DNA of 63,844 nucleotides from a virus. Made by a program: the position numbers and the translations under genes. The stretch lies in UHGV virus genome UHGV-0109393; one strand, 5' to 3'. Below the pieces are notes generated by a model that had not been told where the DNA came from, did not search any database, and worked only from the letters and a program-made list of their open reading frames with translations. Positions 1-63,844 of the stretch are shown here, one piece after another. Every line of letters begins with the position of its first letter. Position 1 is the first letter of the stretch.

Positions 1-66
1 CCGCGACGAAATTGAAAACAGCCATAAACATTAATGGCGTCAGGTTCGATGGTTCGGCTGACATTA
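1..66. repeat. Left copy of the invertible-segment inverted repeat (partial; continues left of the window)
   Basis: Positions 1..52 are the exact reverse complement of 4591..4642; the match degrades over the next ~15 bp. Confidence 0.85.
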
Positions 67-44171: not shown

Positions 44172-44184
44172 TGCATTGTTCCCA

Positions 44185-45180: not shown

Positions 45181-45214
45181 AATGTATACCGACTCTGTTT
45201 TGTTCCGAGCGGTA

Positions 45215-45252: not shown

Positions 45253-45278
45253 CTTTTTTGAGTGCGTAAATGATTTGA

Positions 45279-47524: not shown

Positions 47525-47787
47525 ATGAAAGCGTTGTCCCCGGCAATTAACTTTTTAACGGTGTGCTGGGATTTGTTGCAGAAGCTGCAATAAAGCGTTG
47601 GACTGGCTGATACGGATGGTGCGCCAGATGTCAGCCGCGCGATGTCGTTCTTGCGACGCAATATCACACGGCTGCACTCAACCAGCATCTCCGGGGATAT
47701 CTCCTCCTCCGTAGAGAGCGTCTCTAATCGTTCGAGTATGTGGAAGGCTTTTTCCTGGGTAATTGCAGAATGAGATGTGGTCATCAT
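47461..47787 (-). CDS. Small protein with a ClpX-type N-terminal zinc-binding-domain-like C4 motif
   Basis: [36 protein letters not shown] vs E. coli ClpX [36 protein letters not shown] (recalled). Confidence 0.5.
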
Positions 47788-48485
47788 CTTTCCCCTTCAA
47801 AGTTCGGGCGCAGGCAGGATTGTCCTTTACGAAGCAGGGCTGCGAACCTGTCGGCCGCATCCGCGCAAGCAGAAGCAACGGAATCAAAAAATGGATCATC
47901 TCCGGTATCGCGCATCGTCAAAGCGAATGCCTCCAATCCCTGAGCCTGTATTTCTACAAGATAAGCCTCAGATATAGTGCTTTTCGCTTCACCTAACTCG
48001 TTATGAGCTATGTTCGCTACGCATGCGATGTCTATATCTGGATGATTAATTGGGAGATGGCTAAGAATTGCCTCAAGTGCTGCTTTTTTATTTTGGCATT
48101 CCGCCACCAGCGCCCCGCTATTGCTTTCCAGCTCTGCAATACACTTTTTAGCGGCCTCCAGCTCAACACGCAGCTTCTCAAGCGTTAGGGCCATCTCCAC
48201 GTTCTCGTCCAGCAGTTCAATCACATCAGGATCGCTACCATCAACTACTGATATGCGCGAATTTTTGTAATGCTCGTCAGCATAAGTTCGTCCAGTTTTG
48301 AAGCATCCGTCATCCTCCATGCCGGAACAGGCATAAACAACATGTGATCCAGATATGCGCTGCATTGACATTTCCTCGCCACAAACAGGGCATTTAGGCG
48401 CTGGTTTCGGTGAATAACGTTCACGTAACGGATAGTAAAGCTCGATCTCCGCCAGTTGCTCTGGCGTTAAACCTTCAGACTTCAT
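47784..48485 (-). CDS. Hypothetical protein, paralogue family
   Basis: 233 aa; N-terminal CxxC...C motif, coiled coil, C-terminal [13 protein letters not shown] motif. Confidence 0.4.
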
Positions 48486-48792
48486 GTACTCTCCTTTCGA
48501 AATAAACGTACTGATTAATCATGCCCAGGGGCATTTCGAGTTTTTCCGCGATCTCACGGCGGGGAACACCACACTGATGAAGCTGCCGTGCCAGTTCTAT
48601 ATCGCTCTGCCGGTATTTGGCTGACGGATGAAAGTCTCCTTTCAGAATCATGCTGATCCCCAACTCCCGCGCTTTAGTCCTGACGGCATCACCGGTACGA
48701 CCGATCAGCTTCCCAATACTCTCGACCGTCATAGTTCCGGCGCACTGGCGGAGTATCATGATTTCTGCCCTTCCCCATCCCCGCCAGCTCAC
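48475..48792 (-). CDS. Hypothetical HTH DNA-binding protein
   Basis: 105 aa; HTH-like segment(s), e.g. IGKLIGRTGDAVRTKARELG. Confidence 0.35.
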   Translation of the reverse strand: MSWRGWGRAEIMILRQCAGTMTVESIGKLIGRTGDAVRTKARELGISMILKGDFHPSAKYRQSDIELARQLHQCGVPRREIAEKLEMPLGMINQYVYFERRVHEV

Positions 48793-49427
48793 GCAGAACT
48801 CCTTCTAACCAAAAGAACGCCATCTTCAGAAACAACGTTGCAGGACTTCAGGTAATTCATTGCCTCTTTCGGTAATGGATTCTTTGGATCGGCGTTTGCC
48901 AGGGATTTCGATAACTTCATGATAAATTTGATCATTACCTTCTGGCGGAGCTTGTGCTCATGAGATAAAGAAAGGTAATAGGAAATGGTATGGGCTAAAC
49001 GCTCACGAAGCTGTTCTGTGCCGTGATATACAGCAGCGATATCACGCAGTGCATTGACCAGTTCCCGGTAAATATGCGGAGCAACCTGGCATTCAATGTT
49101 GGTTGGTGACTCATAAATTACAGTCAGCCCCAGCTTTTCAGCCAGCGCGTGCTCTGCACGAGCACCAACCGAATCTTCCCATCGATTGAGCAAATAGATC
49201 GCATCAGCAGAACGCACCATTGCCAGGCAAATATCCATGTATTCACTCTGACAAAGGCCACCAGGTAACACAGCTGGATTCAGAACGATATGCCCTTCAG
49301 CCATCAAATCGCTCGCTTTCGCATTAAACGCCGCACGGTTGTAATCTGGATAACCAGTCATCGGCCCCGCGATGTAAATTTTCAAAACACGTTTCACCAT
49401 CAAAATTTCCCCAGAATCGTGACGCAA
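48789..49427 (-). CDS. Hypothetical protein (possible nucleoside 2-deoxyribosyltransferase-like fold)
   Basis: KIYIAGPMTGYPDYN... resembles Rossmann-like YxAGP families; weak. Confidence 0.3.
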   Translation of the reverse strand: MRHDSGEILMVKRVLKIYIAGPMTGYPDYNRAAFNAKASDLMAEGHIVLNPAVLPGGLCQSEYMDICLAMVRSADAIYLLNRWEDSVGARAEHALAEKLGLTVIYESPTNIECQVAPHIYRELVNALRDIAAVYHGTEQLRERLAHTISYYLSLSHEHKLRQKVMIKFIMKLSKSLANADPKNPLPKEAMNYLKSCNVVSEDGVLLVRRSSA

Positions 49428-49592
49428 AACATAAGCACTGCGAAAAGCTCAATACCAAGCTCAAGTAGCGCCAACGCCCCGAAAACCAACACATAGAACA
49501 GGCCAATCTCATTCACAGATGGCTGGTGGATCGCACTTAAAGCTATAAGCATCATGTCCTCCAAACAGTTATCAGGAATGATATTAATGTTT

Positions 49593-49625
49593 TGTGTTAG
49601 AAAATCAATTTTGAATATCTAACCA
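49593..49625. promoter_or_regulatory. Operator-like site(s) in a divergent promoter region
   Basis: TGTGTTAGAAAATCAATTTT plus ATATCTAACCA; between the leftward operon and ref. Confidence 0.45.
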
Positions 49626-49672
49626 TTTTGATCAATCATAGAAAAATCGTTGAAAAGTAAGAGACTGCCATC

Positions 49673-50251
49673 ATGCAGAAACAGAGTTATTGGGAGAAAC
49701 AGAGACAAAAAGCCATGCAAAAATTGGCTGACCCGGCCTGGCGAGAGGAACAAAGGGCAAAGCGCCTTCAACAAGCTCAACGCCAGCAGCAGCGAGCGAG
49801 AGAAAAAGCCGCATCGCCTGAATATCGGCAAAAGAAAATTGAAAAAGCAAAGCAATATGAACAGCGGAGAAAAGATAAAGCTGTATCCGCTCCGCCCAAA
49901 AAAACACGCACGTCACGCGGCCTGAAGGGCAGATCACTCACAGCCGATGAACGCCGGATACAGACCGCTATCGGTACTCTCCCCTGCATTGCCTGCCATA
50001 TTCACGGGCAACATAGCCCAGTAGTATCCCTGCACCATATCTTCGGGAGAACGGCAGAGAACGCGCATAAATATGTCCTCCCTTTGTGTAAATGGCACCA
50101 CCAGTACGCAGCGCCAGCCGAGGTCCGAGAACAATATCCCTGGCTGGTCCCTGTTCATGCTGATGGAAAAATAGGCGGAAAAGCAGATTTCATACGGCAC
50201 AATGCCGATGAAATGGCGTTGTATCAGATGGCGATTGAATTGATAAATTAG
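49673..50251 (+). CDS. ref: Ref-like HNH endonuclease
   Basis: 192 aa; basic low-complexity N-terminus plus HNH core (CIACHIHGQH...LHHIFGR...CKWHH). Confidence 0.7.
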   Translation: MQKQSYWEKQRQKAMQKLADPAWREEQRAKRLQQAQRQQQRAREKAASPEYRQKKIEKAKQYEQRRKDKAVSAPPKKTRTSRGLKGRSLTADERRIQTAIGTLPCIACHIHGQHSPVVSLHHIFGRTAENAHKYVLPLCKWHHQYAAPAEVREQYPWLVPVHADGKIGGKADFIRHNADEMALYQMAIELIN

Positions 50252-50267
50252 TTTTCTAACATTTTAA
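50246..50267. promoter_or_regulatory. Operator-like site
   Basis: AAATTAGTTTTCTAACATTTTA, overlapping the ref stop. Confidence 0.45.
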
Positions 50268-50582
50268 GTTGAATTGTAAATTTCCCCGATGTACATTCAC
50301 TACCGATTGGCACACCGGTCAACTTTTTGAGACAAACTGTTTAGTTTTTCGTATTATTGCCGCCGCTATACCTATGGCGGTGCAATATAGGTGGCTGAAA
50401 AGCCCCCGTTGACTCACGGTGTTCCAGCCTTTATTGCGCCGCCACCAGACCGTGGAACAGTCAATGGCGGCTCCGAAAGCAAGGAGTCACTACACTATGA
50501 ACAACTACAGTCTTTTACCATCACTCTTCGTCCACCACTCACGCGATAATCTGCATTCTTTACTCGCGCTGGGGGTGTCAAA

Positions 50583-50750
50583 ATGACGGTTCGCTACCTC
50601 AACTTTCAAATCAAGAACATTACTGGCGGTTGCTATGACTGGTTTGTCACTCTCGGAAAAGAAGTGATCACCGGGAAGCTGGATGAAGTGAAAGCTAAAG
50701 CAATGGCCTACGCCTGCAAGCAAGCCCGGAAGAAATCCGCCAAAGCATAA
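50583..50750 (+). CDS. Candidate small protein (55 aa) upstream of immI-like module 2
   Basis: ATG preceded by GGGGGTG; MTVRYLNFQIKNITGGCYDWFV...; not in the ORF track (under 60 aa). Confidence 0.3.
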   Translation: MTVRYLNFQIKNITGGCYDWFVTLGKEVITGKLDEVKAKAMAYACKQARKKSAKA

Positions 50751-50855
50751 AATACTGACTGTTGCGCCCTGGCATTATCGTGGGGTATATTTCTACGGCA
50801 CCTTAGAAAAACGGGTGCCGGGATTGGAACCCCGGATAATGCAAAAGGCGACACA

Positions 50856-50877
50856 GACGCCGAAAGCGTCTTTTTTT
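50856..50877 (+). terminator. Rho-independent terminator
   Basis: GACGCcgaaaGCGTC followed by TTTTTTT. Confidence 0.7.
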
Positions 50878-50899
50878 GTGTCATGCCATCGCACAGCCA

Positions 50900-51035
50900 T
50901 ACGTAGCGTTTAGCTCAGAGATCAATGGTAGTGCTGGCTGGGCTGCCGAAAGGCAGGCCGGTTCCCTTTTGCGCCGGTAGTTCCAACCCAGTCAGTGCTA
51001 CCGCCATTGAGATTGGAACCTCACGCGGTAGCTCC
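50900..51035 (+). ncRNA. Candidate c4-type antisense RNA with target sites (module 2); boundaries approximate
   Basis: GATTGGAACC at 50821 and 51011 with its complement GTTCCAACC at 50980; second pair GCTACCG (50997) / CGGTAGC (51026); tRNA-like TAGCTCAGAG stretch; immediately upstream of the icd-like RBS. Confidence 0.3.
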
Positions 51036-51062
51036 TTAAATTAGCAAAAGGAGGCTGCCATT

Positions 51063-51278
51063 ATGGCTACTACCCCTACCCCAACTCATTCTGAATTTAT
51101 CTGGCGTTTCTATTCCTGCCAAAAACACCTCTATATCTGCGTCATGGCTGCTACCGAAGCAGAAGCGCGCTCATACCTTCCCGAAGAACCCTGCATTTTT
51201 GCTGCTCGCTTCACTCTTGATGCGATGGAGATCCTCAATTACTGGAATCTGCCGATGAACTGCGTGGAGGTGCACTGA
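51063..51278 (+). CDS. Icd-like small protein (paralogue 2)
   Basis: 71 aa; paralogue of 14937..15161; stop overlaps the ant start. Confidence 0.45.
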   Translation: MATTPTPTHSEFIWRFYSCQKHLYICVMAATEAEARSYLPEEPCIFAARFTLDAMEILNYWNLPMNCVEVH

Positions 51279-52204
51279 TGAATCTGTCCATCTCTCAAAA
51301 AGCGACAATGACCAGCATTGAGATCGCGGAACTGGTAGGTAAGCGCCCTGATAACGTTAAACGCACCATTGAACACCTGGCGGAACGGGGCGTAATATCT
51401 TTTCCTCAAATTGAGGAAAAGCCCACCGCAGGCCGCCCGGCGAGCTATTACGTCTTCGAAGGCGAGCAAGGCAAGCGCGATAGTATTGTCGTCGTCGCGC
51501 AGCTCTCTCCCGAATTCACCGCCCGGCTGGTGGACCGCTGGCGCGAACTGGAGAATGCCCGGGTACAGTTAAAATCAAAAGCCGAAATTCTGGCTGAAAT
51601 GGCGCAAATGCATCTTGAGCATGAACGCCGGATCAACGCCGTAAATGCCCAGGTAGCCGAGGTATCAGCACAAGTATCGATGGTCGCTGAAACACTCGAG
51701 CAAATAAAGAAAGGCAATATTCCGGAAGGCTACATTGGCTACCGCCAGCTGGCGGCGAAATGTGGCCTGACTGAAGCCAAATGCCGAAACCTGGTCAACG
51801 CTTACCGGATTCCCACCGATACGCATGAGTTTTTAACTCCCGATGGTTTGCTTGCGCGACGCTCCATTGTGGCCATGGCCCCCTTCCGGAAAGCCTTTAA
51901 GCAGGTGATGTCGGAGGCAGAACCACGCAATAAACGCTGGTATCATCCAAAGATGGGGATGTTTCAGGCAATCCACCATCCTGTGCCTGAAAGTCCAAAG
52001 GCAAACCTGTCGTTGCATACCGCCAGAGAGAGGATTAAAACAGGCTATGCAATCGTATGCCGTCGAGCATCCTGGCCTGAAGGTGTATGGGTGTGGCCCG
52101 AAGGTGGATCACGAAAGCACTGGCGCACTATCCGGGATGGGAAAATCCATGCGATTGATTTAGCTCCAGAGGATGTTGTTGCTACGGACTGGATTGTTAG
52201 TTAA
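51278..52204 (+). CDS. Antirepressor, Rha/Ant family (paralogue 2)
   Basis: MTSIEIAELVGKRPDNVKRTIEHL; the first ~100 and last ~80 residues are near-identical to 15161..15868, with a different middle. Confidence 0.7.
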   Translation: MNLSISQKATMTSIEIAELVGKRPDNVKRTIEHLAERGVISFPQIEEKPTAGRPASYYVFEGEQGKRDSIVVVAQLSPEFTARLVDRWRELENARVQLKSKAEILAEMAQMHLEHERRINAVNAQVAEVSAQVSMVAETLEQIKKGNIPEGYIGYRQLAAKCGLTEAKCRNLVNAYRIPTDTHEFLTPDGLLARRSIVAMAPFRKAFKQVMSEAEPRNKRWYHPKMGMFQAIHHPVPESPKANLSLHTARERIKTGYAIVCRRASWPEGVWVWPEGGSRKHWRTIRDGKIHAIDLAPEDVVATDWIVS

Positions 52205-52212
52205 TTACTGTT

Positions 52213-52234
52213 GCCCCGGCCTGTCCGGGGCTTT
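52213..52234 (+). terminator. Rho-independent terminator
   Basis: GCCCCGGCCtgtCCGGGGC followed by TTT; same hairpin type as after ant paralogue 1. Confidence 0.6.
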
Positions 52235-52263
52235 AACTACTAAATAACCGGATTCTCCGCACG

Positions 52264-52548
52264 ATGAAGAAAATAGATTTCACTTACTCTGCTGCCACAA
52301 TCCAGCGACGTTTCAGTCTCATAAGGGAAGTGGAACTATCAAAAAACTGCTATCAAATTCTACTGGATGAAGAGTTTTCACTGATGGTTATAGCAGAAAA
52401 ATTGGCTATGCCGAATGACCGGCACAAGGTCATAGCCAGCCTGGATCTGGTGACAAACAGATACTGGGAATACGAGGAACTACTTGAAGTTGGCTTGATA
52501 CGCGAGATGATAGAACAGGCTGTTCCCCTCCACTTACAGCAACCATAA
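52264..52548 (+). CDS. Hypothetical protein
   Basis: 94-aa ORF. Confidence 0.35.
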   Translation: MKKIDFTYSAATIQRRFSLIREVELSKNCYQILLDEEFSLMVIAEKLAMPNDRHKVIASLDLVTNRYWEYEELLEVGLIREMIEQAVPLHLQQP

Positions 52549-52684
52549 TTGAAAGGTCTTAACGATAGTCTGCCACGAATAGTTACTTCCACTGCCTAAA
52601 GTTATTTAATTGCATTACAAAGTGTAAATTAGTAACATTAGAATCTCACACAGCACTATAACTATATGTTTTTTATGTAAAAGG

Positions 52685-53044
52685 ATGATAATCGTGGCTA
52701 CTAAAATTAAACTTGAAAACCCTCAAACTGGCGAATCAATCACCGGTTTTTATGGTTTTTCCTGGACTACATTCTTGTTTGGTGCTTTTCCAGCTTTGTT
52801 CAGGAAAGACTTTATAACTTTTATTGGGGTATTTGTAGTGATGCTGATACTGGCATTCCTCACAGCCGGAATTGGCCCGTGGATTGCCTCATTTATCTGG
52901 GCGTTCATGTATAATAAATATTTCACCGTAAATAAGATAAAACAAGGCTTCATTTTTGCTGGTTCTCACACAGAAAATGAGTTGGCTGCTAGCAAGCTAG
53001 GATTGTCATTAAATCAAAACAACTGCAAAACTATTACCGAGTAA
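52685..53044 (+). CDS. Small integral membrane protein (AT-rich moron)
   Basis: About 116 aa with two hydrophobic helices; likely GTG start at ~52695; locally AT-rich. Confidence 0.4.
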   Translation: MIIVATKIKLENPQTGESITGFYGFSWTTFLFGAFPALFRKDFITFIGVFVVMLILAFLTAGIGPWIASFIWAFMYNKYFTVNKIKQGFIFAGSHTENELAASKLGLSLNQNNCKTITE

Positions 53045-53083
53045 AGCCAAAAAGCAGGCTTAATAGTAAGCCTGCTATGTCAA

Positions 53084-53917
53084 TCACGAATCTCTCTGAC
53101 AATTCAGAAACATAAACGCCCGCTTGTCTGTTAAATCCGTAACATAATACTCTCTCATGCCTGTAGGTTTTATTCTACGAGCATATACAAACTTATGAAC
53201 TGGTTGTTTTTCCCCATAACTTACATCAGTCCTAAATTCATCAACCACGCTACCATCTTTTTCAGTTTCCTTTCTCACTAGCTGATTTTCTAATACAGGC
53301 TTTGATTCGTCCATGCCACTAAAAGCATCCTGACCTGTGCTGTTGCCTCGGTTTCCGCGTGGCAAATCCCATGAAAAATAAGTGCCATAGTCAGTAATCA
53401 CACGATCCCATGTTCCGGAATCCCCCATATAGTTAGAACGCTCCCCCTTGTAAGTTACAGCCACCTTACAGGCATACGTTTCACCATTATTTTTTTTATC
53501 ATGTCCAGCCATGCTTGCAGGAGTTGCAGGGGAATTATGAATAGATGCGCTTACATCATCCTGCGTTAATTCCTCAACTGGAGCAAATTCATATATGGGT
53601 GTGCCGAGGCTATTTAAATATAACTTATATCTAACCCTAAGCGCACTTCCATCAGAGAATTCATACGTTCCCAGACATTGGAGCTTATTTTTTTCTCTTA
53701 TCTCATTGATCTGATTATAAGCATCAATTACAGAGATTGCTTCCTGATCGTCCTTCAGCAGTTCATTATAATCATCGATTAACATCTGTCTGGTTTTAGG
53801 GGCATTACAGTCAATTTTGCTAAAATCATAAGCAAAGGCAAATGTGGGAACAGAGAGAGCAACAACAGTAGCAAGTATTGTTGAGGAACATCTTTTTCCA
53901 TTTTTTATAAAAAACAT
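53084..53917 (-). CDS. Secreted/periplasmic protein with signal peptide (AT-rich moron)
   Basis: Start at MFFIKNGKRCSSTILATVVALSVPTFAFA (GGAG RBS), predicted cleavage after AFA; about 278 aa; AT-rich codon usage unlike neighbours. Confidence 0.5.
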   Translation of the reverse strand: MFFIKNGKRCSSTILATVVALSVPTFAFAYDFSKIDCNAPKTRQMLIDDYNELLKDDQEAISVIDAYNQINEIREKNKLQCLGTYEFSDGSALRVRYKLYLNSLGTPIYEFAPVEELTQDDVSASIHNSPATPASMAGHDKKNNGETYACKVAVTYKGERSNYMGDSGTWDRVITDYGTYFSWDLPRGNRGNSTGQDAFSGMDESKPVLENQLVRKETEKDGSVVDEFRTDVSYGEKQPVHKFVYARRIKPTGMREYYVTDLTDKRAFMFLNCQRDS

Positions 53918-54263
53918 TTCATTAACTCCATACTTTACCATCTTAGCCGCGAGCGCGGTCCCTAAAACCCTTAACTTCACTACCCCGTCCTTCATGTAAA
54001 CAAAATGAGGTTTTATGTTATAAAAACAATCAACTACATCAACATGATTTAGGCCAAGTTTCGGTCAAATAATAAAATCCTCAAAAAGTGGTTGACACTA
54101 TTCTGGAAATCACAAACTGCACATAATCCATCGCGCTAACGGCTCCCGTTGAAGGTTCTTTTGACGATTAACTTTCAGCCGAAGCGCGGTAGGGAGTCAT
54201 AACGCCAAAGCAGGCCGCCATGTGCGGCCTTTTTTTGTATCCGTCATCCGTGGAGGAAGGACA

Positions 54264-54917
54264 ATGGAAAAGATCGCAATATTCAGCCTGACCACCAGCA
54301 AGCCTCAAATGCTCACTGCAATACTGAAAGACGGTGCTCTCATTATTAACGAAGTAAAACCCCTTCCCGCGTCAGCATTGGAGCAAAAGCAAAAAATTCC
54401 TCCAGCTATAGCAGCCCTGCGGAAAAGCAAATTTAAGGTACTGGTAGACGAAATTACGCCAACGATCTCCGCTGGCACCGGAGCAAGCCAGGTGACTCTC
54501 AAGACCCGTCATGCCGATGGCAGAGCAGCAATCATCGTCGGGATGGAAAGATACAGAGAGTTAAAACTCCAGAAGCTATTATCCCTGCCGCAAAATAACA
54601 AAGGTGCTTTCGAAATCCCCGACTCTATCGTTGATACCGAATACAACGGTAACGGAGAAGAAGTCTACAGGGTGAACTGGCAGGATATCAGGCCGGAGCA
54701 TATTCTGATGATCCTGTGTTGCTACGCGACCGTATACCACAACGTTGCCAGTGCGGATTACGTAGAGCAGATGATCGGTACAGTCGAGAAAGAGCAAAAA
54801 ACAGGCATACTCGCTTCGTTCCTGTCCATTATTGGGCATGAAAAAGTTAAAGCAGGCACCTCCCAGCCAAAGTCACTGACTGGGAAAGAAGTTGATGAAG
54901 ATACCGTGATACTTTGA
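54264..54917 (+). CDS. Hypothetical protein
   Basis: 217 aa from the ATG with GGAGGAAGG RBS. Confidence 0.45.
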   Translation: MEKIAIFSLTTSKPQMLTAILKDGALIINEVKPLPASALEQKQKIPPAIAALRKSKFKVLVDEITPTISAGTGASQVTLKTRHADGRAAIIVGMERYRELKLQKLLSLPQNNKGAFEIPDSIVDTEYNGNGEEVYRVNWQDIRPEHILMILCCYATVYHNVASADYVEQMIGTVEKEQKTGILASFLSIIGHEKVKAGTSQPKSLTGKEVDEDTVIL

Positions 54918-55245
54918 TCACATTAGTAGCTTTGTTAACTCCCTCAATACCAGGTAGAAGAGTAACAAAAATATTGACGCCAGTATTTGAGTGGTCAATG
55001 AGGCGTTCATAAACAGATCAATAAGCTTTAACAATTCTAGAATAACATCCATGTCATTCACTCCGTTTAATTTTTAATCTAATGCCAGCAAATGAAGCTG
55101 GCCCCCGCATAAAGATTAATGAAAGTCACTTGTCACCAGTGAGGGGATTTATGAACCACATCCCCCTGAACTGGTGGCCTGTCTGTTTCTCGCATTTCAC
55201 ACCCTGCATACAGTTTCCACCAGGTTATGACTGAGAGGCTTTGTT

Positions 55246-55575
55246 ATGGGCTATAGCAGACTCGACGATAGGTACATTGAAGACGATATTTTTCGTGCGC
55301 TGTTTCACCAGGAAATGATTAAGCGGGTATCGGAGTATCACTCTGATAATTTCCAGTACACGATAAAGATTGATGAAGTATATCGTTCAGACCTTGCAGC
55401 CTACAGGGCGTATGGCAATGCAGATTTGCGCTGGGTATTCCGGGTGCTGGTGGGCCATGAGTCAGAAATGGAAGAAATGCCCGCCGGGACCACGTTAACT
55501 CTTCCTGATGTCGCATGGCTGAGGAACAAGATCCGTGATTACGCGAGCGCGGAACCGGAGATAGAAAATGCCTGA
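55246..55575 (+). CDS. Hypothetical protein
   Basis: 109-aa ORF coupled to the next gene. Confidence 0.4.
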   Translation: MGYSRLDDRYIEDDIFRALFHQEMIKRVSEYHSDNFQYTIKIDEVYRSDLAAYRAYGNADLRWVFRVLVGHESEMEEMPAGTTLTLPDVAWLRNKIRDYASAEPEIENA

Positions 55576-56764
55576 TTTCCTGAAAAACCAGGACGGGCGA
55601 TATATCACTGATGGCCTGTCCTCTAAGGACTTCACGCGTTTATTCGACCTTATCAGTAAAGAACAAACCCGTAAGCGCCGACAAGCTCACCGGACGCTGA
55701 CGCCCGGCAGACTGAGGAACAAATCCGCCGAAGATATTCTCAAGTTGGGGAAGAAGAAAGGCGGCACGTTCTTTACGCGAGACGATCTGAAAGGCTTCGA
55801 AAAGCTACGGAGTAAAACGCGCGAAAAATATGACAGTAAGACGGCAGGCATCACATACGCCCAGCTGGTGGCATCCAGCCAGGCTATCGATATTAAGCGT
55901 GCAAATAACGCCGTGGATGACGGATCTGGTATCAAAAGAGCTACACCCGTATCTCTTCGCCACAATGTGATTAATATCCGCGTAGAAGCATCGGATATAT
56001 CCGTCCACCAGCACCATATCGTCCGTATACGCTTTGAAGAATGGGATCAGATGGTCGATGACATCGCAGAAGACGATAAATCAGCTCTGAAAATCACTAA
56101 ATCACTGTGCGCCGGGCGGGTGTCTTTCGATTGTGACTGTGGTCGTCATCAATACTGGTATCGTTACATTGCTACTGCGGGTAACTTTGCCCTGGCCCCG
56201 CCAAAAGAATACGCCTATCCAAAAGTTCGTAACCCTAAGCTACAAGGCGTCGCCTGTAAACACGTGATCCACTCAATGACGCGGTTACAGTCCGCCAGTT
56301 GGCAAATGAGTATTGCTCGTGCGTTACAAAAGGCCGCAACGCAAATTGCATTTGGTGACGATCGCCGCCGTACAACTAAACACTTCTCAAAAGAAGACGA
56401 GAAGGAGTTTAATCGCAATCGTAGCAGTAAAACGAACGTTGAAGCCGCCAAACGCGAATGGAGGCTCTATCAGAAACGCCAGGCCGCTTTAAGCACAAAA
56501 CTGGCAAAGGACAACGGGAAGATTGACAAGCTACGTGACCAGCTGACCAGGGCCAGAAAGTTGTCCGATGCACAGAAAAAACGGGCAGCAGCAAAAGAAG
56601 CAGCCTTGCAACGTGAGAAACAGAAAAACAAGGAGCTTCAGCAACGCCTTGCCGATCAATTCGCACTGAAGAAGCAAGCGTTCATTGATGCACTGGTCAT
56701 GGCAGGAACGTCACCTGAGCAAGCTGAAAAAATGTTTATGGAGTACGTGAAGAAAGGTTCTTGA
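55568..56764 (+). CDS. SWIM zinc-finger-like protein with basic coiled-coil C-terminus
   Basis: 398 aa; FDCDCGRHQYW...GVACKHVIH fits the CxCxnCxH SWIM pattern. Confidence 0.45.
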   Translation: MPDFLKNQDGRYITDGLSSKDFTRLFDLISKEQTRKRRQAHRTLTPGRLRNKSAEDILKLGKKKGGTFFTRDDLKGFEKLRSKTREKYDSKTAGITYAQLVASSQAIDIKRANNAVDDGSGIKRATPVSLRHNVINIRVEASDISVHQHHIVRIRFEEWDQMVDDIAEDDKSALKITKSLCAGRVSFDCDCGRHQYWYRYIATAGNFALAPPKEYAYPKVRNPKLQGVACKHVIHSMTRLQSASWQMSIARALQKAATQIAFGDDRRRTTKHFSKEDEKEFNRNRSSKTNVEAAKREWRLYQKRQAALSTKLAKDNGKIDKLRDQLTRARKLSDAQKKRAAAKEAALQREKQKNKELQQRLADQFALKKQAFIDALVMAGTSPEQAEKMFMEYVKKGS

Positions 56765-56798
56765 TTGACAACAAAGGCGGTCATACAGACCGCCAAAC

Positions 56799-57158
56799 TC
56801 ATACACCAACCAGGCTTTCAAGAGGAATGCCAAACTGGGAATGTAAACGACGAATCATAGGTAACGTTAAATTTCGTGTCCCATTTAGCACTTCGTAAAC
56901 ACGATTTGACTTACCAATCGCCGGTTCCAGATCCTTCACGGTCAGCCCTTGCTGTTCCATACGGAATTTAATGGCTTCAATAGGTGATGGTGGCTCAATT
57001 GGGTAATGCTTTTTCTCGTACTCTTCAATGAGCAGGCACATTACTTCAAAGAAATCGCCTTCCGGTGTGTTCATTTCCGGTTCGTTATCGAACATCGGTT
57101 CGACCGCACGCAGTGCGGCCTCATAATCTTGTTCTGTACGGATAGGTTTAATGTTCAT
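56799..57158 (-). CDS. higA: HigA-like antitoxin (HTH-XRE)
   Basis: 119 aa; C-terminal HTH LTVKDLEPAIGKSNRVYEVLNGTRNLTLPMIRRLHSQFGIPLESL; directly downstream of the toxin. Confidence 0.7.
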   Translation of the reverse strand: MNIKPIRTEQDYEAALRAVEPMFDNEPEMNTPEGDFFEVMCLLIEEYEKKHYPIEPPSPIEAIKFRMEQQGLTVKDLEPAIGKSNRVYEVLNGTRNLTLPMIRRLHSQFGIPLESLVGV

Positions 57159-57161
57159 GAT

Positions 57162-57464
57162 TTACTCCAGTTCTATTGTATCCGCTTCAATGGCATCGTA
57201 TTCCTTATGTGTTCCAATAAACTTAACGAACATCCATCCTCGCTGATAAGCAATTGCGACAATTAACCTGTAATCATTTCCCTTAATATTGAACACCACG
57301 CGCCTGTTTTTAAGGATGCTGGCTGTCCGGTACTGTTCTTTGATCTCAGCCGGATTTTTCCAGTCAGCCTTTGTTGCTTCATCAACCCATGCCTTTAATG
57401 GCTGTTCTGCATCGGGATTCTTCGCCCAGAAATCCCTTAGTGTTTTTACCGAAATTATTTTCAT
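57162..57464 (-). CDS. higB: HigB-like toxin (RelE/ParE superfamily)
   Basis: Start at MKIISVKTL; FNIKGNDYRLIVAI...FIGTHKEYD is typical of HigB; toxin-first gene order. Confidence 0.7.
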   Translation of the reverse strand: MKIISVKTLRDFWAKNPDAEQPLKAWVDEATKADWKNPAEIKEQYRTASILKNRRVVFNIKGNDYRLIVAIAYQRGWMFVKFIGTHKEYDAIEADTIELE

Positions 57465-57494
57465 CACAGATTCCTTCTCGCTGAAAGTATAGTA

Positions 57495-57540
57495 GTCCCA
57501 ATATGGGACAATGTAAAGCACTTTAGTCCCATGCTGGGAT
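57495..57540. promoter_or_regulatory. Palindromic operator pair in the higBA promoter
   Basis: GTCCCAatatGGGAC and GTCCCAtgcTGGGAT just upstream of higB. Confidence 0.5.
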
Positions 57541-57567
57541 ATGAATTGAAATCACAATCTCCAGACA

Positions 57568-58401
57568 ATGCACCCTCGATACCTGATAAATCGACCTTTG
57601 AGGATGCTTATGGGCCGTTTTGACGAATGGTTTGCTGACGATGCAAGCCTGGCAAGTAAGGAGTCAGAACATGACAGCACGCAGAGAGAAACGCCAGCGC
57701 CGATTGAAGCGAATGCAGGAGGTGCGCCGGAACATGGCAATACCGGTTCGGATTCATTCAGCATTCTGGAAGAGCAACCCGCCGCCAAAGCTGATAGCCA
57801 TGATAATTTTGCTGATAGCAACGCTGGCCTTACTCCGGATACTGGCGAATCAGATATAGCCATACTCCCATCTTCCCTGGCTGGCAGAGAACCAACTCCA
57901 CAGCTAAAAGTACGCTATAACGGGCATAAAGCCTTTAACGACCAAATCCGCGCAGACTGGATGCTGATTATTGAATCCAGCCCAGACGCGTTTCAGGCTC
58001 TCTTATATCGACCAGATGTTGGCACATATGGGGTAGTCAGCGACGAAACAGGAGAAGAGTCATTCACTGAACTGGATAACAACCAGCGCGAACTGACTTA
58101 CCAGGAACCTGAAATCGTTTATGTGCTGGATAACCCGGACGGGCGTGACTCTTTCCATGCGATTGACGCAGACGGTGAGCAGGATGGCTTAACCGATGAT
58201 GTTCTGATTCTGCGTATTGCAGCAAATTACGTCCCCGTCGGATCAATTCTTGAATGGAATGAAGAGATGGTAAACGGCGTAGCCCGCCGCTGGTGGTACG
58301 TGCACCGTATTTTTAGCTACGGCACACAGCATGTTGGTTCGCTTTACTACTGCATACCTGCCAGGAATTTTGATACGACTCAAAACGGAGTGATCGAATG
58401 A
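57568..58401 (+). CDS. Hypothetical acidic protein
   Basis: 277-aa ORF. Confidence 0.4.
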   Translation: MHPRYLINRPLRMLMGRFDEWFADDASLASKESEHDSTQRETPAPIEANAGGAPEHGNTGSDSFSILEEQPAAKADSHDNFADSNAGLTPDTGESDIAILPSSLAGREPTPQLKVRYNGHKAFNDQIRADWMLIIESSPDAFQALLYRPDVGTYGVVSDETGEESFTELDNNQRELTYQEPEIVYVLDNPDGRDSFHAIDADGEQDGLTDDVLILRIAANYVPVGSILEWNEEMVNGVARRWWYVHRIFSYGTQHVGSLYYCIPARNFDTTQNGVIE

Positions 58402-59165
58402 CTTCAAATAAAACCCTCCTGGCGCGAACAGGTGAATGGCAAACCTCACGCACAGGGAAATTCCAGACCACGGGCTTTGAAAACGTGGATAACGCGTTTG
58501 CTACGCTAATCAGCAATATCTTTTCTGATATCTTACTGGTGGCCCCCGCGCCGGAAGAAAAACGCTTTGCGTCATTCCTGAATCGTCCACCAGCAGAGCG
58601 TGTCTATGTGGCCCGTTTCGACAATGCGATCGAGTTTCTTAAAGCAGTTCGTCGCGCAAATGCCGGGCAAGGAAGAAAACCGGAAAACCAGAACATTAAT
58701 CGCGATGCCTTGCCGTTGATCAACATCTCCCGGTCTATGGATATCAGCTATATCAATGATGATCAGCAGATAGACCGCAGGCAAACTGCCAGTTTTTGCA
58801 ACCCGGATACTGGAATGCCTTTAGCGACTCTGGAATACACCCAGGCTATCCTGACTTATGACGTTACGTTAATGGCTACTGATAAAGCAACCATGAGTCT
58901 GATGTGTAATTCGCTGGGCGCGCGGCTCCGCCTGATGACCGGAACACAATTTGAGGCAAACACTAACCTGGTGCGTGTTCCTGTTCCTCTGATTTGCTCC
59001 ATTCAGGATGCTAAAGACGTTGGATTTACGGATGTTTCGGCACCAGTGGGAGAAGAGAGGATTTATGCTACTCAGGCACCTGTAAGCGTCATTGCGGATG
59101 TAATCACAGCCTGGGAATTGGACGCGAAACGCGTTGTTACTGAAACCTCGCTGGCTATGGGGTAA
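58398..59165 (+). CDS. Hypothetical protein
   Basis: 255 aa, coupled to the upstream gene. Confidence 0.4.
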   Translation: MTSNKTLLARTGEWQTSRTGKFQTTGFENVDNAFATLISNIFSDILLVAPAPEEKRFASFLNRPPAERVYVARFDNAIEFLKAVRRANAGQGRKPENQNINRDALPLINISRSMDISYINDDQQIDRRQTASFCNPDTGMPLATLEYTQAILTYDVTLMATDKATMSLMCNSLGARLRLMTGTQFEANTNLVRVPVPLICSIQDAKDVGFTDVSAPVGEERIYATQAPVSVIADVITAWELDAKRVVTETSLAMG

Positions 59166-59168
59166 TCA

Positions 59169-60149
59169 ATGTCCCAGGAGTTACAACAATACTTCCTCCA
59201 GTCAGTCACAATTAACGATAACAAAGTGCCACGAGACTGGATTTTTACCGCAGTGTACGTGGAAAAGAGCAGCCTTAAAGCGCCGTTATTGAAGCTGGAA
59301 ATTCATGACATGACAGGCACCATAATTGATGACTGGAAAGCTAAATACGGTGCATCGCTGGTGGCTGAAATGGGCGATCCAAACGGTAATGCAGGCACTT
59401 TTAAAACAACTTTTTTTGTTACGTCAGCAATGCTGGCTGGGGATGTAGTTACCGTTATTGCGGTCAGTGAAGACGTGCATCGGTTTAAGATCCCCTCCCC
59501 TCGCACCAATCTACACACGAACAAAACGCCGGACACCATATTCAAGGCGTATAGCGGCAATCTTAAAATTTCCAGCAGTGTCTTAAAGCGTGCGGTTACA
59601 TATCACCTGAACGCAGGCGAAAAACCGTCAAAAATGCTCTCGCAGATAGCGCGAGACAAAGGTGCATTATGTTGGGTATGCCGGGGGGAATTTAACTTTT
59701 ACACCCTGGCTGATCTGATGAAGCAAACGCCATCATTTACCTACGAGGGGAATAACCCTAAAGCAGAATACACTTTGTCCAAAATGCGCCTACTCCAACA
59801 GGAACATGCGACAACAGCAAAGAATCATTATCGTTTTGTTGGGTATTCCATGACCGATGGCTACGTCGAATATGGCGATAGCTCACTCCCAGTGCGTTAT
59901 ATATCCGACTCTGATATGGAAACTCTTCGCAATATGCAGCTGTCTCTCGTCCCCAAAATGGATATAGAAGTCGCAGGCAATCCGGATATAAAACCGGGGA
60001 TGGTAATAGAGATTATCGTATACCGCTATGACCAGGAAAACCGCATTGATGAATCAATGCCCCGTAAGCTGATAGTAAAAAATGTTGCGCACTTTGAAGA
60101 CCGCGTAGGCTACACAACACGAATGATATTAGGAGTGCCGAACAAATGA
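59169..60149 (+). CDS. Hypothetical protein
   Basis: 326-aa ORF. Confidence 0.4.
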   Translation: MSQELQQYFLQSVTINDNKVPRDWIFTAVYVEKSSLKAPLLKLEIHDMTGTIIDDWKAKYGASLVAEMGDPNGNAGTFKTTFFVTSAMLAGDVVTVIAVSEDVHRFKIPSPRTNLHTNKTPDTIFKAYSGNLKISSSVLKRAVTYHLNAGEKPSKMLSQIARDKGALCWVCRGEFNFYTLADLMKQTPSFTYEGNNPKAEYTLSKMRLLQQEHATTAKNHYRFVGYSMTDGYVEYGDSSLPVRYISDSDMETLRNMQLSLVPKMDIEVAGNPDIKPGMVIEIIVYRYDQENRIDESMPRKLIVKNVAHFEDRVGYTTRMILGVPNK

Positions 60150-60799
60150 AGCGTAGAGCGCAAATTGTTGGAACTGTGCACCCGGCAGGGCTTATGCGTG
60201 CTCAAGTCCGTGTTTTACCTGACTGGAATGGCGTTCCTGATGACGATCTACCCTGGGCGGAATACCTGTTACCCATCGGAAACGCTTTTGTACCCACAGT
60301 CAAAGGTGACCTGGTCTGGGTAGAGTTTCCTTATTTAGATGTTAACGGTCGAATAGACACCAGACGCCCAATGATAGTTGGTGCCGCTCAGGATGCACCG
60401 GGAGGAATTCCAAACGTTGCACCAGAAGCATCTGGCAAAGGCAACGGCTGGACGCCGCCGGAAGTAGATGGAGCACCTCCCCGCCCCCAAATCTCAGCAA
60501 CGAAAGACTTCGTTATTCACCGCAACAATATTCTTGAAGTACGAACTGCTGGTGGCGGCTATGAAATTGCCAATACGGCAGCAGGCTCAAGGATTGGCAT
60601 GAATGAGTCAGGGCAGATATATATCATTGGTCCGGCTGATGTAATCGTGAATGCAGGAGGGAGTGTTAACGTCAAATCAGCCAACAACATCAATGTTAAT
60701 GGGGAAAATATAGCTGTCACCGCTAACGGAGACATAGCTTTCAAGGCAGGAGGAACCTTTCAGGCCACTGCTGGCAACTTCGATTTCAAGAAAGGATAG
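60146..60799 (+). CDS. Hypothetical Gly-rich protein
   Basis: 217-aa ORF. Confidence 0.4.
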   Translation: MKRRAQIVGTVHPAGLMRAQVRVLPDWNGVPDDDLPWAEYLLPIGNAFVPTVKGDLVWVEFPYLDVNGRIDTRRPMIVGAAQDAPGGIPNVAPEASGKGNGWTPPEVDGAPPRPQISATKDFVIHRNNILEVRTAGGGYEIANTAAGSRIGMNESGQIYIIGPADVIVNAGGSVNVKSANNINVNGENIAVTANGDIAFKAGGTFQATAGNFDFKKG

Positions 60800-60810
60800 A
60801 AAATGCACCC

Positions 60811-60850
60811 ATTTGTGTTAGATAATTAACATGTATTTTCTAACACAAAT
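60811..60850. promoter_or_regulatory. Operator-like dyad (two inverted TGTTAGA half-sites)
   Basis: ATTTGTGTTAGA...TCTAACACAAAT, a perfect 12-bp inverted repeat with 16-bp spacer, just upstream of rdgC. Confidence 0.5.
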
Positions 60851-60858
60851 GGTGAGAC

Positions 60859-61764
60859 ATGAGATCAGTCGCTTTCAAAAATATCTTCATCTATCGTCTT
60901 TCACGCGAAGTTAGCTGGGATACTGCAGCGGTAAACGCTGCTCTTGGCAAATTTGTGTTTACCCCATGCGGTTCTCAGGACATGGTTAAAGCTGGTTGGA
61001 CGCCTGTTCTTGGCAACAACCTCACACATGAATACCAGGGTTTTCTTCTGATACAGCATAAACGAGAGGAAAAAATCCTACCTTCTCAAGTGCTCAAAGA
61101 AGAGTTACAGAAAAAAATCCTGACACTTGAAGAAGAGCAAGACAGAAAGCTGAAGAAGACCGAAAAAGATTCGCTGAAGGATGAAGTGCTTCACTCTCTT
61201 CTTCCTCGTGCTTTCACGAGAAAATCACTCGCCAAAATCCTGATCGACCGCAGCAACCATCTGGTATTCGTTGAGGCAAGCAGCGCCAAAAAGGCAGAGG
61301 ACCAGCTGGCTTTATTGCGAAAATCGCTCGGCAGCCTGCCTGTCATTCCATTCACACCACGCGAACCGCTGGAAATTACAATGACCGAGTGGTTTAAAAA
61401 CGGCTTCCCTGCCGGATTTACAGCAGGTGAAGACGCCACATTAAAGGGTCTGCTCGATAATGGTGGTGCCGTTCGCTGCAACAAAGTTGATCTACAGTCC
61501 GACGAGATTATGTCTCACATTGAGGCGGGGAAAGTAGCTACGACCGTTGCAATTAACTGGATGGACCGCGCGTCGTTCAGAGTCAACGATGATATGAGTA
61601 TCAAAGCCCTGACATTCTGTGATGATCTCTATGACCAGAACGACGATATCGACCGGGAGGATGTAGCACAACGATTTGATGCTGATTTCGTGCTCTTTAC
61701 GGGCGAATTATCTGCACTGTTTAACGCGCTGGTGGAGGCCATTGGCGGTGAAGCAGAACGATAA
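60859..61764 (+). CDS. rdgC: Recombination-associated protein RdgC
   Basis: 301 aa; long blocks match E. coli RdgC as recalled (KKTEKDSLKDEVLHSLLPRAF, ASSAKKAEDQLALLRKSLGSLPV, DIDREDVAQRFDADFVLFTGEL). Confidence 0.85.
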   Translation: MRSVAFKNIFIYRLSREVSWDTAAVNAALGKFVFTPCGSQDMVKAGWTPVLGNNLTHEYQGFLLIQHKREEKILPSQVLKEELQKKILTLEEEQDRKLKKTEKDSLKDEVLHSLLPRAFTRKSLAKILIDRSNHLVFVEASSAKKAEDQLALLRKSLGSLPVIPFTPREPLEITMTEWFKNGFPAGFTAGEDATLKGLLDNGGAVRCNKVDLQSDEIMSHIEAGKVATTVAINWMDRASFRVNDDMSIKALTFCDDLYDQNDDIDREDVAQRFDADFVLFTGELSALFNALVEAIGGEAER

Positions 61765-61780
61765 TAACCGACAGCTTGTT

Positions 61781-62428
61781 GTGAGTCTTTGTGATTTTAC
61801 GGGGGCAATGGTTGCCCCCTGGCTGGAATACGGTGTCGATGCCGCTATCGTCGATCCACAGCACTTATCGACCAGTGACGAGCGGATGCAATCAGGTGCC
61901 GTTCTGACGCGTATTAGTGCGATCATCGATAGCGATGAAGTATACGCTTTTCTCCGTAAGAATTTGCAGCGCATCGTGTTTCTGGCCGGGTTCCCACCGT
62001 GTACTGACCTGGCTGTTTCCGGCGCGCGCTGGTTTTCGGACAAGGCTAATAAAGATCCGGTTTTCCAGTTCAAAGCAATGCAGGTTGTCTGGCAGTGTTA
62101 TGACATTGCAAAGATGATCGGTTGTCCGTACATGATTGAAAATCCGGTCAGCAAAATATCGACATTCTGGCGTAAGCCAGATCACATCTTTCACCCTTAC
62201 TTCTTCACTGCATATTGCCAGGAAGATAACTACACCAAAAAAACATGCCTCTGGAGCGGCCAGGGCTTTGTCATGCCTGATGCCCTAATGGACGAATCAT
62301 TAGGCAAGCCAGATAACAGAATCCATGCCGCGCCACCAGGGCCTGACAGGGCTAATTTTCGAAGTGCTACTCCACATGGATTCGCAAAGGCAGTTTTCGA
62401 AGCGAATAAGGGGGTGCTCTATGAGTAA
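61781..62428 (+). CDS. Putative C5-cytosine methyltransferase-like protein (degenerate motifs)
   Basis: Start taken at the GTG after the rdgC stop; DFTGAMV (motif I-like), FPPCTDLAVSG (PC catalytic motif), ENPV (ENV-like). Confidence 0.45.
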   Translation: MSLCDFTGAMVAPWLEYGVDAAIVDPQHLSTSDERMQSGAVLTRISAIIDSDEVYAFLRKNLQRIVFLAGFPPCTDLAVSGARWFSDKANKDPVFQFKAMQVVWQCYDIAKMIGCPYMIENPVSKISTFWRKPDHIFHPYFFTAYCQEDNYTKKTCLWSGQGFVMPDALMDESLGKPDNRIHAAPPGPDRANFRSATPHGFAKAVFEANKGVLYE

Positions 62429-63326
62429 ATCTATAGCAAGCATAGCCATAGAAAAACAGGATACGATGGCTGAAATTAGCTATATGCGCACCATTCGGAC
62501 TCCGGATGAATATGAGCGTCCGATATTCAAATGGGTAGGTGGTAAATTCTCAGAATTGCCTACAGTGCTTGAGCATCTACCACACGGTAAGCGGTTAATA
62601 GAACCATTCGTTGGTGGCGGTTCCGTATTTACGAATGCAGGATTTCGCCACAACCTGCTTAATGATATTAACGGTGACCTGATTAACTTCTATCAGACAT
62701 TGCAGCGAGAAGGACATTCGCTTGTCACGCTGTCATATAGTTTTTTCCAAAATTACAACAACGCTGACGCTTACCTCGAAGTGCGTGAGGCATTTAACAG
62801 AGGAAAGTATGACCAGCTACATCATGCTGCCGCCTTTTTGTACCTTAATCGGCACTGTTTTAATGGCGTAACGCGGTACAACCAAAATGGCGAGTTCAAC
62901 GTGGGGTATGGCAAATACAAAGCGCCCTACTTCCCACATGCAGAGATGGAGGCATTTTTGGCTGATGACGTACTCAAAAACACGTCCTTTGTATCAGGTG
63001 ACTTTGCTGGCGTCATCGAGGCGGCTGGTGAAGGCGATGTGATTTTTTGCGATCCGCCGTATGAACCGCTGCCGGATACAGAAGGGTTTACCAGTTATTC
63101 AGGAAATAGCTTCCGTTTCGACGAACAGAAACGGCTGGTATCTCTATTGGTGGAAGCCCACCAGCGCGGCGCTAAGGTAGTGATAACAAATAGTGGTGCG
63201 CCAAACATCCGTGAACTATATGAAGGAAACGGGTTTAAAGTACATCATATGGCAGCCAGACGGTCGGTGTCCTGCAAGGCGTCAACACGTGTAGTTGCTA
63301 ACGATATAATTGCAATAATGAAGTAA
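62421..63326 (+). CDS. dam: Dam-family N6-adenine DNA methyltransferase
   Basis: KWVGGKF, EPFVGGGSV (SAM-binding), DPPY catalytic motif; ATG at 62421 overlaps the upstream stop. Confidence 0.8.
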   Translation: MSKSIASIAIEKQDTMAEISYMRTIRTPDEYERPIFKWVGGKFSELPTVLEHLPHGKRLIEPFVGGGSVFTNAGFRHNLLNDINGDLINFYQTLQREGHSLVTLSYSFFQNYNNADAYLEVREAFNRGKYDQLHHAAAFLYLNRHCFNGVTRYNQNGEFNVGYGKYKAPYFPHAEMEAFLADDVLKNTSFVSGDFAGVIEAAGEGDVIFCDPPYEPLPDTEGFTSYSGNSFRFDEQKRLVSLLVEAHQRGAKVVITNSGAPNIRELYEGNGFKVHHMAARRSVSCKASTRVVANDIIAIMK

Positions 63327-63357
63327 AAAACGCCGCAGTAGCGGCGTTTACTTTTTT
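63325..63357. terminator. Bidirectional terminator at the phage-host junction
   Basis: aaaaaACGCCGCagtaGCGGCGTttacttttttatg. Confidence 0.65.
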
Positions 63358-63374
63358 ATGTGGCGAAATACCTA

Positions 63375-63844
63375 TTAACCTAACTTCGCCCAGGTATCAC
63401 GCAGCCCAACGGTGCGGTTAAATACCGGTTTTTCCGCCGTAGAATGGCGGCTGTCGAGGCAGAAATAACCTTCACGCTCAAACTGGAATGCTTTACCCGC
63501 TACCGCTTCTTTCAGCGACGGTTCAGCAAAACCCTGTTTGATCACCAGCGATTCCGGGTTAATCACCGACAGGAAATCATCCGCAGCACCTGGGTTAGGC
63601 ACGCTGAACAGACGGTCATACAAACGGATTTCAACCGGCAGCGCATGTGCCGCGCTCACCCAGTGAATAACGCCTTTCACTTTACGACCATCTGCCGGAT
63701 CTTTGCTTAAGGTGTCGGCGTCATAAGTACAGAAGATGGTGGTGATATTGCCTTCGGCATCTTTCTCCACGCGTTCAGCCTTAATGACGTAAGCATTACG
63801 CAGACGCACTTCTTTACCCAGCACCAGACGTTTGTACTGCTTGT
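63375..63844 (-). CDS. glnS: Glutaminyl-tRNA synthetase, 3' end (host gene, truncated by window edge)
   Basis: Translation ...[73 protein letters not shown]... matches the C-terminal anticodon-binding domain of E. coli GlnRS as recalled; ORF runs off the window. Confidence 0.85.

Follow-up and report, generated by a model that had tools for sequence, protein, structure and literature searches.

glnS beside a dam-type methylase gene at the edge of a D6-like phage-plasmid contig

Gene content of the window edge

The window, i.e., the whole stretch of viral DNA analysed here (63,844 nucleotides), ends within a gene for glutaminyl-tRNA synthetase (glnS, encoding GlnRS), which converges on a gene for a Dam-type N6-adenine DNA methylase (Table 1). 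The methylase reading frame opens with an ATG at 62421 and closes with a TAA at 63324-63326. It is a homologue of orf63 of phage D6, according to the D6 annotation, and resembles the C-terminal half of the P1 Dmt protein. The glnS stop codon, as its reverse complement, occupies 63375-63377, and the minus-strand frame stays open as far as the window end. The fragment encodes the last 155 residues of GlnRS, which match the anticodon-binding beta-barrel domains PF20974 (E=1.3e-26) and PF03950 (E=8e-9). It is 96.8% identical to K-12 glnS over 466 nt, and its product ends in ...WAKLG*, whereas the chromosomal product ends in ...WAKVGE*.

An earlier interpretation, made from the letters alone and referred to below as the sequence-only reading, had placed the minus-strand 3' end of glnS 48 bp from the dam stop, with a terminator common to both genes. 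Both observations are borne out. The two stops lie at 63326 and 63375. The hairpin between them has a 9-bp G+C-rich stem bordered by a run of A on one flank and a run of T on the opposite flank, and a terminator scan rates it as an intrinsic terminator in both directions. Its predicted folding energy is -17 to -19 kcal/mol, with a z-score of about -3.5. The methylase itself is split, as an upstream reading frame at 61748-62428 overlaps the dam-type frame at 62421-63326 by 8 nt. The upstream frame encodes 226 aa without a Pfam match, and in D6 it is annotated as a putative cytosine methylase. In plasmids p702_18_3, pE2863-2 and pPSS-10_3, a single fused methylase gene of 2.3-2.6 kb is annotated, like P1 Dmt, and the dam part of plasmid pEP91B-2 is flagged as partial in RefSeq.

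Table 1. Features at the two ends of the window
Feature	Position	Strand	Basis or remark
One arm of a 66-nt inverted repeat (other arm at 4577-4642)	1..66		Bounds the invertible tail-fibre segment
Dam-type N6-adenine DNA methylase gene	62421..63326	+	Open reading frame; D12-class, 301 aa; Pfam PF02086, E=1.9e-56
Inter-stop spacer, 48 bp	63327..63374		Sequence; comparison of filled and empty sites
Two-way intrinsic terminator hairpin	63328..63349		AAACGCCGC-AGTA-GCGGCGTTT; scan of both strands and fold
glnS assigned to the element, 3' 470 nt (codons 399-553 and stop), truncated by the window end	63375..63844	-	Open frame; in register with D6 orf62 and pEP91B-2 glnS
K-12-type patch, 28 nt (gene nt 1413-1440)	63597..63624	-	K-12-type bases at 5 of 5 informative sites
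Last 55 nt, past the last site (63789) separating the window allele from K-12-type glnS	63790..63844		Allele comparison

Identity of the element

The last 8.8 kb of the window (55000-63844) has a sole match among phage genomes, phage D6, at 96.5% identity and 95% coverage. The same query matches 138 plasmid records, 105 of which cover at least 80% of it. These plasmids are nearly all about 75-95 kb in size, 135 of the 138 are non-mobilizable, and their hosts are mainly E. coli (109), Salmonella (19) and Shigella (6). Moreover, 58 of the 64 kb of the window align colinearly with pEP91B-2, a circular plasmid of 89.7 kb, with 99.6% identity at 67-39281 and 97.8% at 53944-63844. The best complete-genome matches to the window likewise reach 99.6%. 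On the strength of the D6 match, the plasmid matches and the colinearity with pEP91B-2, the window is, as judged by sequence comparison, roughly two-thirds of a D6-like, P1-related phage-plasmid. The label "P1-like" given by the sequence-only reading is correct as to the relationship, but the closer description is D6-like.

Several further features of the element were recorded. The accessory region at 39282-53943 is patchily common to the window and pEP91B-2 and contains ead/Ea22-like genes, DUF genes and small reading frames. Segments 39282-40097, 40827-42162, 46775-47822 and 51959-53943 have no counterpart in pEP91B-2. Four tRNA genes are located at 28013-29207, namely Arg-TCT, Thr-TGT, Ser-TGA and one with a CAT anticodon, annotated as tRNA-Ile in pEP91B-2; tRNA-Gln is not among the four, despite the GlnRS gene. 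A 191-aa protein encoded at 29661-30236 contains a Tad2-like (Thoeris anti-defence) domain (E=1.5e-9). A 2279-aa protein encoded at 16734-23573 has SNF2/helicase domains and a weak N6_Mtase match, and the pEP91B-2 annotation describes it as SNF2-related; it may resemble P1 DarB. Between tail genes, a HigB-like toxin and an HTH antitoxin are encoded at 56799-57158 (-) and 57162-57464 (-), a pair that is a second moron-like cassette. At this site, D6 and other relatives carry a different version, comprising a RelE-type toxin, two HigA-type genes and an extra reading frame.

The recombinases nearest the glnS end are a Cre-like enzyme and a Cin-like enzyme. The former is a tyrosine recombinase (Phage_integrase, E=1.1e-16) encoded at 35447-36475, in the middle of the element and near neither window end. 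Its position and family would make it Cre-like, and it is no evidence for chromosomal integration. The latter, a serine recombinase with Resolvase and HTH_7 domains encoded at 4769-5329, adjoins an invertible tail-fibre segment. The arms of the 66-nt inverted repeat bounding this segment are 97% complementary and enclose two opposed sets of tail-fibre and fibre-assembly genes; positions 2111-2461 and 2858-3208 also belong to this segment.

glnS in the relatives of the window

In phage D6 (MF356679 / NC_050154), orf62, with a length of 1662 nt, is annotated as "glutaminyl-tRNA synthetase, similar to E. coli GlnS". It lies next to orf63 (dam) and is followed by orf61, a ParA-like gene, StbB and StbA. 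The order dam, glnS and orf61/partition genes is also annotated in pEP91B-2, p702_18_3, pYU39_89 and pE2863-2. The 110-nt junction is identical in the window, D6 and pEP91B-2, and the sequence flanking it is 98.3-99.6% identical in D6, pEP91B-2 and dozens of other complete plasmids. According to tblastn searches, GlnRS at least 99% identical is encoded on 101 PLSDB plasmids, and D6 is the sole named, host-assigned phage in the collection with a full-length GlnRS match.

The nearest relative is a 70.5-kb metagenome contig (L103), found by exact look-up of the 263-aa protein encoded at 57610-58401 of the window. Over the last 16,235 nt of the window, it differs at 5 positions (99.97% identity). 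Beyond the point at which the window ends, it continues through full-length glnS into orf61, a ParA-like gene, StbB, ParM and a PAAR-like gene. The continuation into plasmid genes is thus observed in relatives, while the window itself ends inside glnS; the RepB, StbA/ParM-StbB and ParA-like genes of the relatives lie past its right end. A query comprising the D6-type dam gene and the spacer (62421-63378) was found in 101 of 5426 complete E. coli genomes, at 101 plasmid and 0 chromosomal places. In two other plasmids of the D6 group, pCUVET20-PYO4.3 and pPSS-10_3, the site is empty and dam is followed directly by orf61.

In the light of these comparisons, the glnS at the window edge is very probably the phage-plasmid's own complete, host-derived gene, and the window a contig of a D6-like plasmid prophage. 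The sequence-only reading had regarded the gene as chromosomal; the lineage-specific LG* end and the plasmid genes beyond glnS in relatives identify it instead as the element's own copy. It had also offered a phage-plasmid with captured host DNA as one of its two options. The capture is upheld, but the captured DNA is not the short fragment envisaged there; it is an old, full-length, lineage-wide cassette of promoter, reading frame and terminator known from D6. The carriage of glnS by D6-like elements is already published: the gene is described as present in all D6-like genomes and is called a moron (PMC6799933), and that article cites Gilcrease and Casjens 2018 for D6 and D6-like plasmid prophages such as pYU39_89.

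Organization and integrity of the glnS cassette

The glnS cassette measures ~1.8 kb and is bordered by the dam/dmt methylase gene on one side and by the orf61/ParA-like partition operon on the other. In plasmids with a filled site, homology to enterobacterial chromosomes begins ~75-87 nt upstream of the glnS ATG. This homology covers the core promoter (TTGTCA, 17 nt, GATCAT), the 5'UTR and the Shine-Dalgarno sequence. Promoter and 5'UTR agree with those of chromosomal glnS in different genera, and the GATC within the -10 region is retained. Judged by sequence, both a promoter and a terminator are predicted to belong to the cassette. In E. coli, methylation by Dam represses transcription from the glnS promoter (Plumbridge and Soll 1987; confirmation in PMC12369378), and the position of a Dam-sensitive promoter beside a phage Dam-type methylase gene may be a coincidence. 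Upstream of the orf61/ParA-like operon, from the glnS promoter to orf61 (L002 8726-8907), there are many iterated motifs of the GGTGCAC / GGTACC type, whose sequence differs between glnS-bearing and glnS-less plasmids (empty-site equivalent, L004 6915-7051). They may represent a partition site with group-specific repeats.

At the other end of the cassette, comparison of filled and empty sites demonstrates that the 48-bp spacer is missing in glnS-less relatives, and it would have arrived together with the glnS cassette. The stem of the hairpin it contains also directly follows glnS in Citrobacter, Salmonella, Enterobacter, Kluyvera, Atlantibacter and Pseudescherichia, whereas in E. coli and E. 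ruysiae the 3' flank has a REP-like palindrome in place of the hairpin. Because the same stem follows the gene in other genera, the terminator appears to have come in with it, as the ancestral enterobacterial glnS terminator, which would now serve the convergent dam gene as well. The homology of the window glnS to K-12 ends at the last codons (63379). A capture junction inside these codons was considered and rejected, as the downstream hairpin is the native glnS terminator of other Enterobacteriaceae. All plasmid alleles end in ...WAKLG*, an ending for which point mutations (GTT to TTA, GAG to TAA) can account.

The full-length plasmid gene, as read in relatives with the identical junction, is uninterrupted and encodes 553 aa. 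The two motifs of the class I Rossmann-fold catalytic domain are in place, HIGH at position 41 and MSKR at position 269. Relative to E. coli GlnRS, the plasmid enzyme has 3-5 conservative substitutions in addition to V552L and the loss of E554. V97I and I112V occur in all alleles, Q106K in most and D510E in some. The L103 protein aligns end to end with the crystallised E. coli GlnRS with 4 substitutions. Pairwise dN/dS is 0.02-0.03 (Citrobacter and Salmonella rows left out owing to an unaligned in-frame indel), a value that overstates selection on the plasmid copy, as the variation was partly imported from chromosomal alleles already under selection. An intact plasmid gene is likewise present in Salmonella hosts, where the resident glnS shares only ~85% identity with it.

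The cassette gene would be expected to yield an active GlnRS that charges host tRNA-Gln. A lysogen would thereby gain a second, separately replicating copy of an essential gene, and lytic replication would produce many glnS copies. Of 5426 complete E. coli genomes, 5425 retain chromosomal glnS, counted when at least 80% of the gene is present, and hosts of D6-like plasmids are among them. The benefits proposed for plasmid glnS are host fitness or plasmid maintenance/addiction, by analogy with plasmid cysS (PMC6799933).

Origin of the gene and mosaic alleles

The 5' third of the gene (nt 60-400) differs by ~5% from E. coli chromosomes in every plasmid allele, with 15 clustered fixed differences. 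Among the matches listed, which form a spread sample of 5425 genomes, the top chromosomal identity in this segment is 95.6%. Only 17 of 5500 matching records reach 99%, and 77 of the matched places are on plasmids. Identity is 93% with E. ruysiae and at most 87% with other genera. The 3' two-thirds, in turn, is mosaic: D6 and pYU39_89 are 99% K-12-like, while pEP91B-2, p702_18_3 and pE2863-2 are 98-99% like B2/A2 alleles. The 3' part of the window gene is of the pEP91B-2 (B2/A2-like) type.

Two donors were tried and discarded. E. ruysiae provides the top protein match (99%), but its nucleotide identity (95.3%) is lower than that of E. coli, its signature segment is the 93% match given above, and its 3' flank is of the REP type. 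An origin of the entire gene from E. coli sensu stricto was rejected on nt 60-400, given the best value among the matches listed. The simplest reading of these alleles is a single capture from a non-E. coli, Escherichia-like source combined with repeated gene conversion by host alleles. The gene would have been acquired once, by illegitimate recombination from an Escherichia-like chromosome other than that of E. coli sensu stricto, after which alleles of its E. coli hosts would have replaced the 3' two-thirds in recurrent rounds of gene conversion.

The window itself contains a small K-12-type patch, listed in Table 1, which holds its only differences (5) from L103 over 16.2 kb. Elsewhere in the fragment, every informative site as far as 55 nt from the window end is plasmid-type. 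The patch is either a gene-conversion tract or the product of mixed plasmid and chromosomal reads near the contig end.

Alternative explanations for the junction

The position of the window end can be considered in terms of assembly. The window is flanked by repeats at both ends, the 66-nt inverted repeat and glnS, and its end falls within a 119-nt stretch common to the window and K-12-type alleles. Among the closest draft contigs, 8 of 10 (L105-L112) break in glnS itself or no more than ~110 nt from its 3' end. Since plasmid glnS is a ~97% repeat of host chromosomal glnS, short-read assembly would be expected to break there, and an end 55 nt past the last distinguishing site is what k=55 de Bruijn assembly would be predicted to give. 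Because most of the closest contigs break at glnS, the window starts on a repeat arm and its other end lies at this distance, the window edge is probably an assembly break. The window would then be a whole short-read contig bounded by repeats, and the abutment of phage DNA and glnS partly an assembly effect.

The sequence-only reading had put forward a prophage integrated downstream of glnS. It is extremely improbable that a P1-like prophage is site-specifically integrated just downstream of an intact chromosomal glnS, a proposal for which the bare adjacency of phage DNA and the glnS 3' end speaks, and nothing more. D6 and more than 100 circular plasmids show the same adjacency, and past glnS they continue with plasmid genes. 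In D6 and each of the complete relatives examined, these are orf61, ParA-like, StbB and ParM genes rather than nagE. In the comparison with the uninterrupted nagC-fldA region of K-12, glnS alone matches the window; the sequence that follows glnS in K-12 (REP-like palindrome, chiZ, chiP) is absent from it. Of the features of an att-site prophage, chromosomal genes past the junction, att direct repeats and a nearby integrase were all absent from the window. The sequence-only reading had itself noted that neither an integrase nor an att repeat is visible at this end, and that holds: the terminal 518 nt have no second copy elsewhere in the window. The lineage-specific LG* C-terminus of the window allele also argues against a chromosomal gene. 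The misassembly at 63327-63375 that the same reading had allowed for, in which a plasmid contig is joined to a fragment of chromosomal glnS, is harder still to credit and borders on impossible. The glnS repeat does upset assemblies, as contig breaks and contig L096, described below, illustrate. However, the junction is base-for-base identical in phage D6 and pEP91B-2, its flanks recur in dozens of complete plasmids, and the glnS fragment has the plasmid-specific rather than the chromosomal 3' end.

A different route to a chromosomal location would be RecA-dependent homologous (Campbell-type) integration via glnS itself, in which case the window glnS would continue into nagE. Although very unlikely for the window, this event is made conceivable by the 1.7 kb of 96-97.5% identity between plasmid and chromosomal glnS, by mosaic alleles showing that the two copies recombine, and by the K-12-type patch in the window glnS. 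It is also suggested by L094 (GCA_018428975.1 JAGUIC010000003.1), which together with L096 makes up the two large contigs obtained by exact look-up of the Dam protein. L094 is 388 kb long, contains no N runs and reads rdgC-dam-glnS-nagE-nagB-nagA-nagC. Its glnS (10955-12616) is a hybrid, with K-12-type sequence as far as nt 1440, the promoter included, and plasmid-type sequence from nt 1572 onward. On its phage side, L094 has another ~90 kb, which comes near the length of one phage genome. L094 represents either Campbell-type homologous integration or an assembler path through the ~130-nt stretch common to both alleles. Against integration in the window stand its plasmid-type sites outside the patch, which extend up to 55 nt from its end, and its nearest relative, L103, which runs into plasmid genes. 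None of the 101 complete E. coli genomes with the D6-type dam has it on the chromosome; the gene is on a plasmid in all of them, which also counts against the integrated state that was one of the two options of the sequence-only reading. Only 2 of 1998 collection blocks with the exact Dam protein have contigs of more than 200 kb, so chromosomal linkage is rare at best, and one of the two, L096, is an N-gapped scaffold. L096 (GCA_006231505.1 SQAB01000059.1) places 7.5 kb of D6-like DNA between chiP and nagE. It was rejected as evidence of chromosomal context and attributed to scaffolding, as every junction consists of 10 N (9217-9226, 11885-11894, 12277-12286, 16835-16844).

The occurrence of K-12-like and B2/A2-like alleles in different plasmids, together with the 28-nt patch, leads to a broader question about glnS in this lineage. 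These observations form the basis for viewing the captured gene as a portable homology arm, at which continual gene conversion with the essential host glnS would be accompanied by real, occasional and reversible integration into chromosomal glnS, without att sites or an integrase. This view is unlikely to be correct; gene conversion alone between plasmid and host glnS is the likely account. If integration at glnS does occur, L094 could be an example of the integrated state. For the window, the preferred reading remains that of a glnS gene belonging to a D6-like plasmid prophage.

Comparison with known systems

The closest systems are phage D6 and the D6-like plasmids. They have the same order of rdgC, cytosine-methylase-like reading frame, dam, terminator and glnS, with an identical junction and an identity of 96.5-99.6%. 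The differences concern the 3' part of glnS, which is B2/A2-like with a K-12-type patch in the window but K-12-like in D6 and pYU39_89, as well as the HigBA cassette and the 39-54 kb accessory region, in which the window differs from D6.

Bacteriophage P1 is the archetypal phage-plasmid. It too has a plasmid lifestyle, its virion, Dmt/Dam, RdgC (hrdC), Cre-like and Cin-like genes are related to those of the window, and D6 genes are annotated as "similar to P1 gene". The P1-type dam is ~73% identical to that of the window. However, no glnS is present among the P1-type matches listed in the collections searched, Dmt is one fused protein, and the replication and partition genes of P1 are unlike the RepB, StbAB and ParA-like set of D6.

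Phage morons are autonomous promoter-gene-terminator insertions between conserved phage genes. The glnS cassette resembles them in being missing at the same site in close relatives, in its predicted promoter and terminator, and in its apparent host origin. It differs in its cargo, an intact essential housekeeping gene that is nearly identical to that of the host and creates 1.7 kb of homology with the chromosome. A further parallel is the cysS gene on a plasmid of Salmonella Typhimurium ST313, which, in the summary of Canals et al. 2019 given in PMC6799933, has been proposed to stabilise the plasmid by replacing the chromosomal copy. Both cases involve the duplication of an essential aminoacyl-tRNA synthetase gene on a plasmid. 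For glnS, in contrast, the chromosomal copy is kept in 5425 of the 5426 complete E. coli genomes.

Significance

Beyond the published carriage of glnS, the new points are minor and incremental. They concern the terminator of ancestral type, the non-E. coli signature of the gene, its mosaic alleles and the pitfalls for assembly. These pitfalls call for caution. When a phage-plasmid carries a near-copy of a housekeeping gene, contigs end there and can be misread as evidence of integration, and the same applies to scaffolds such as L096, which place plasmid DNA in the chromosome via the common glnS.

D6-like elements occur widely in E. coli, Shigella and Salmonella, with invasive S. Typhimurium ST213 among the hosts (PMC6799933; bioRxiv 10.1101/2025.09.12.675607), and appear always to bring with them an intact gene for an essential tRNA synthetase that has its own promoter. 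Their mosaic glnS alleles, although an incremental point, merit a targeted look, as they hint at a mobile element that is still recombining with an essential gene of the chromosome. If the homology-arm view were true, such elements would be able to switch between plasmid and chromosomal prophage by homologous recombination at glnS, with neither att sites nor an integrase.
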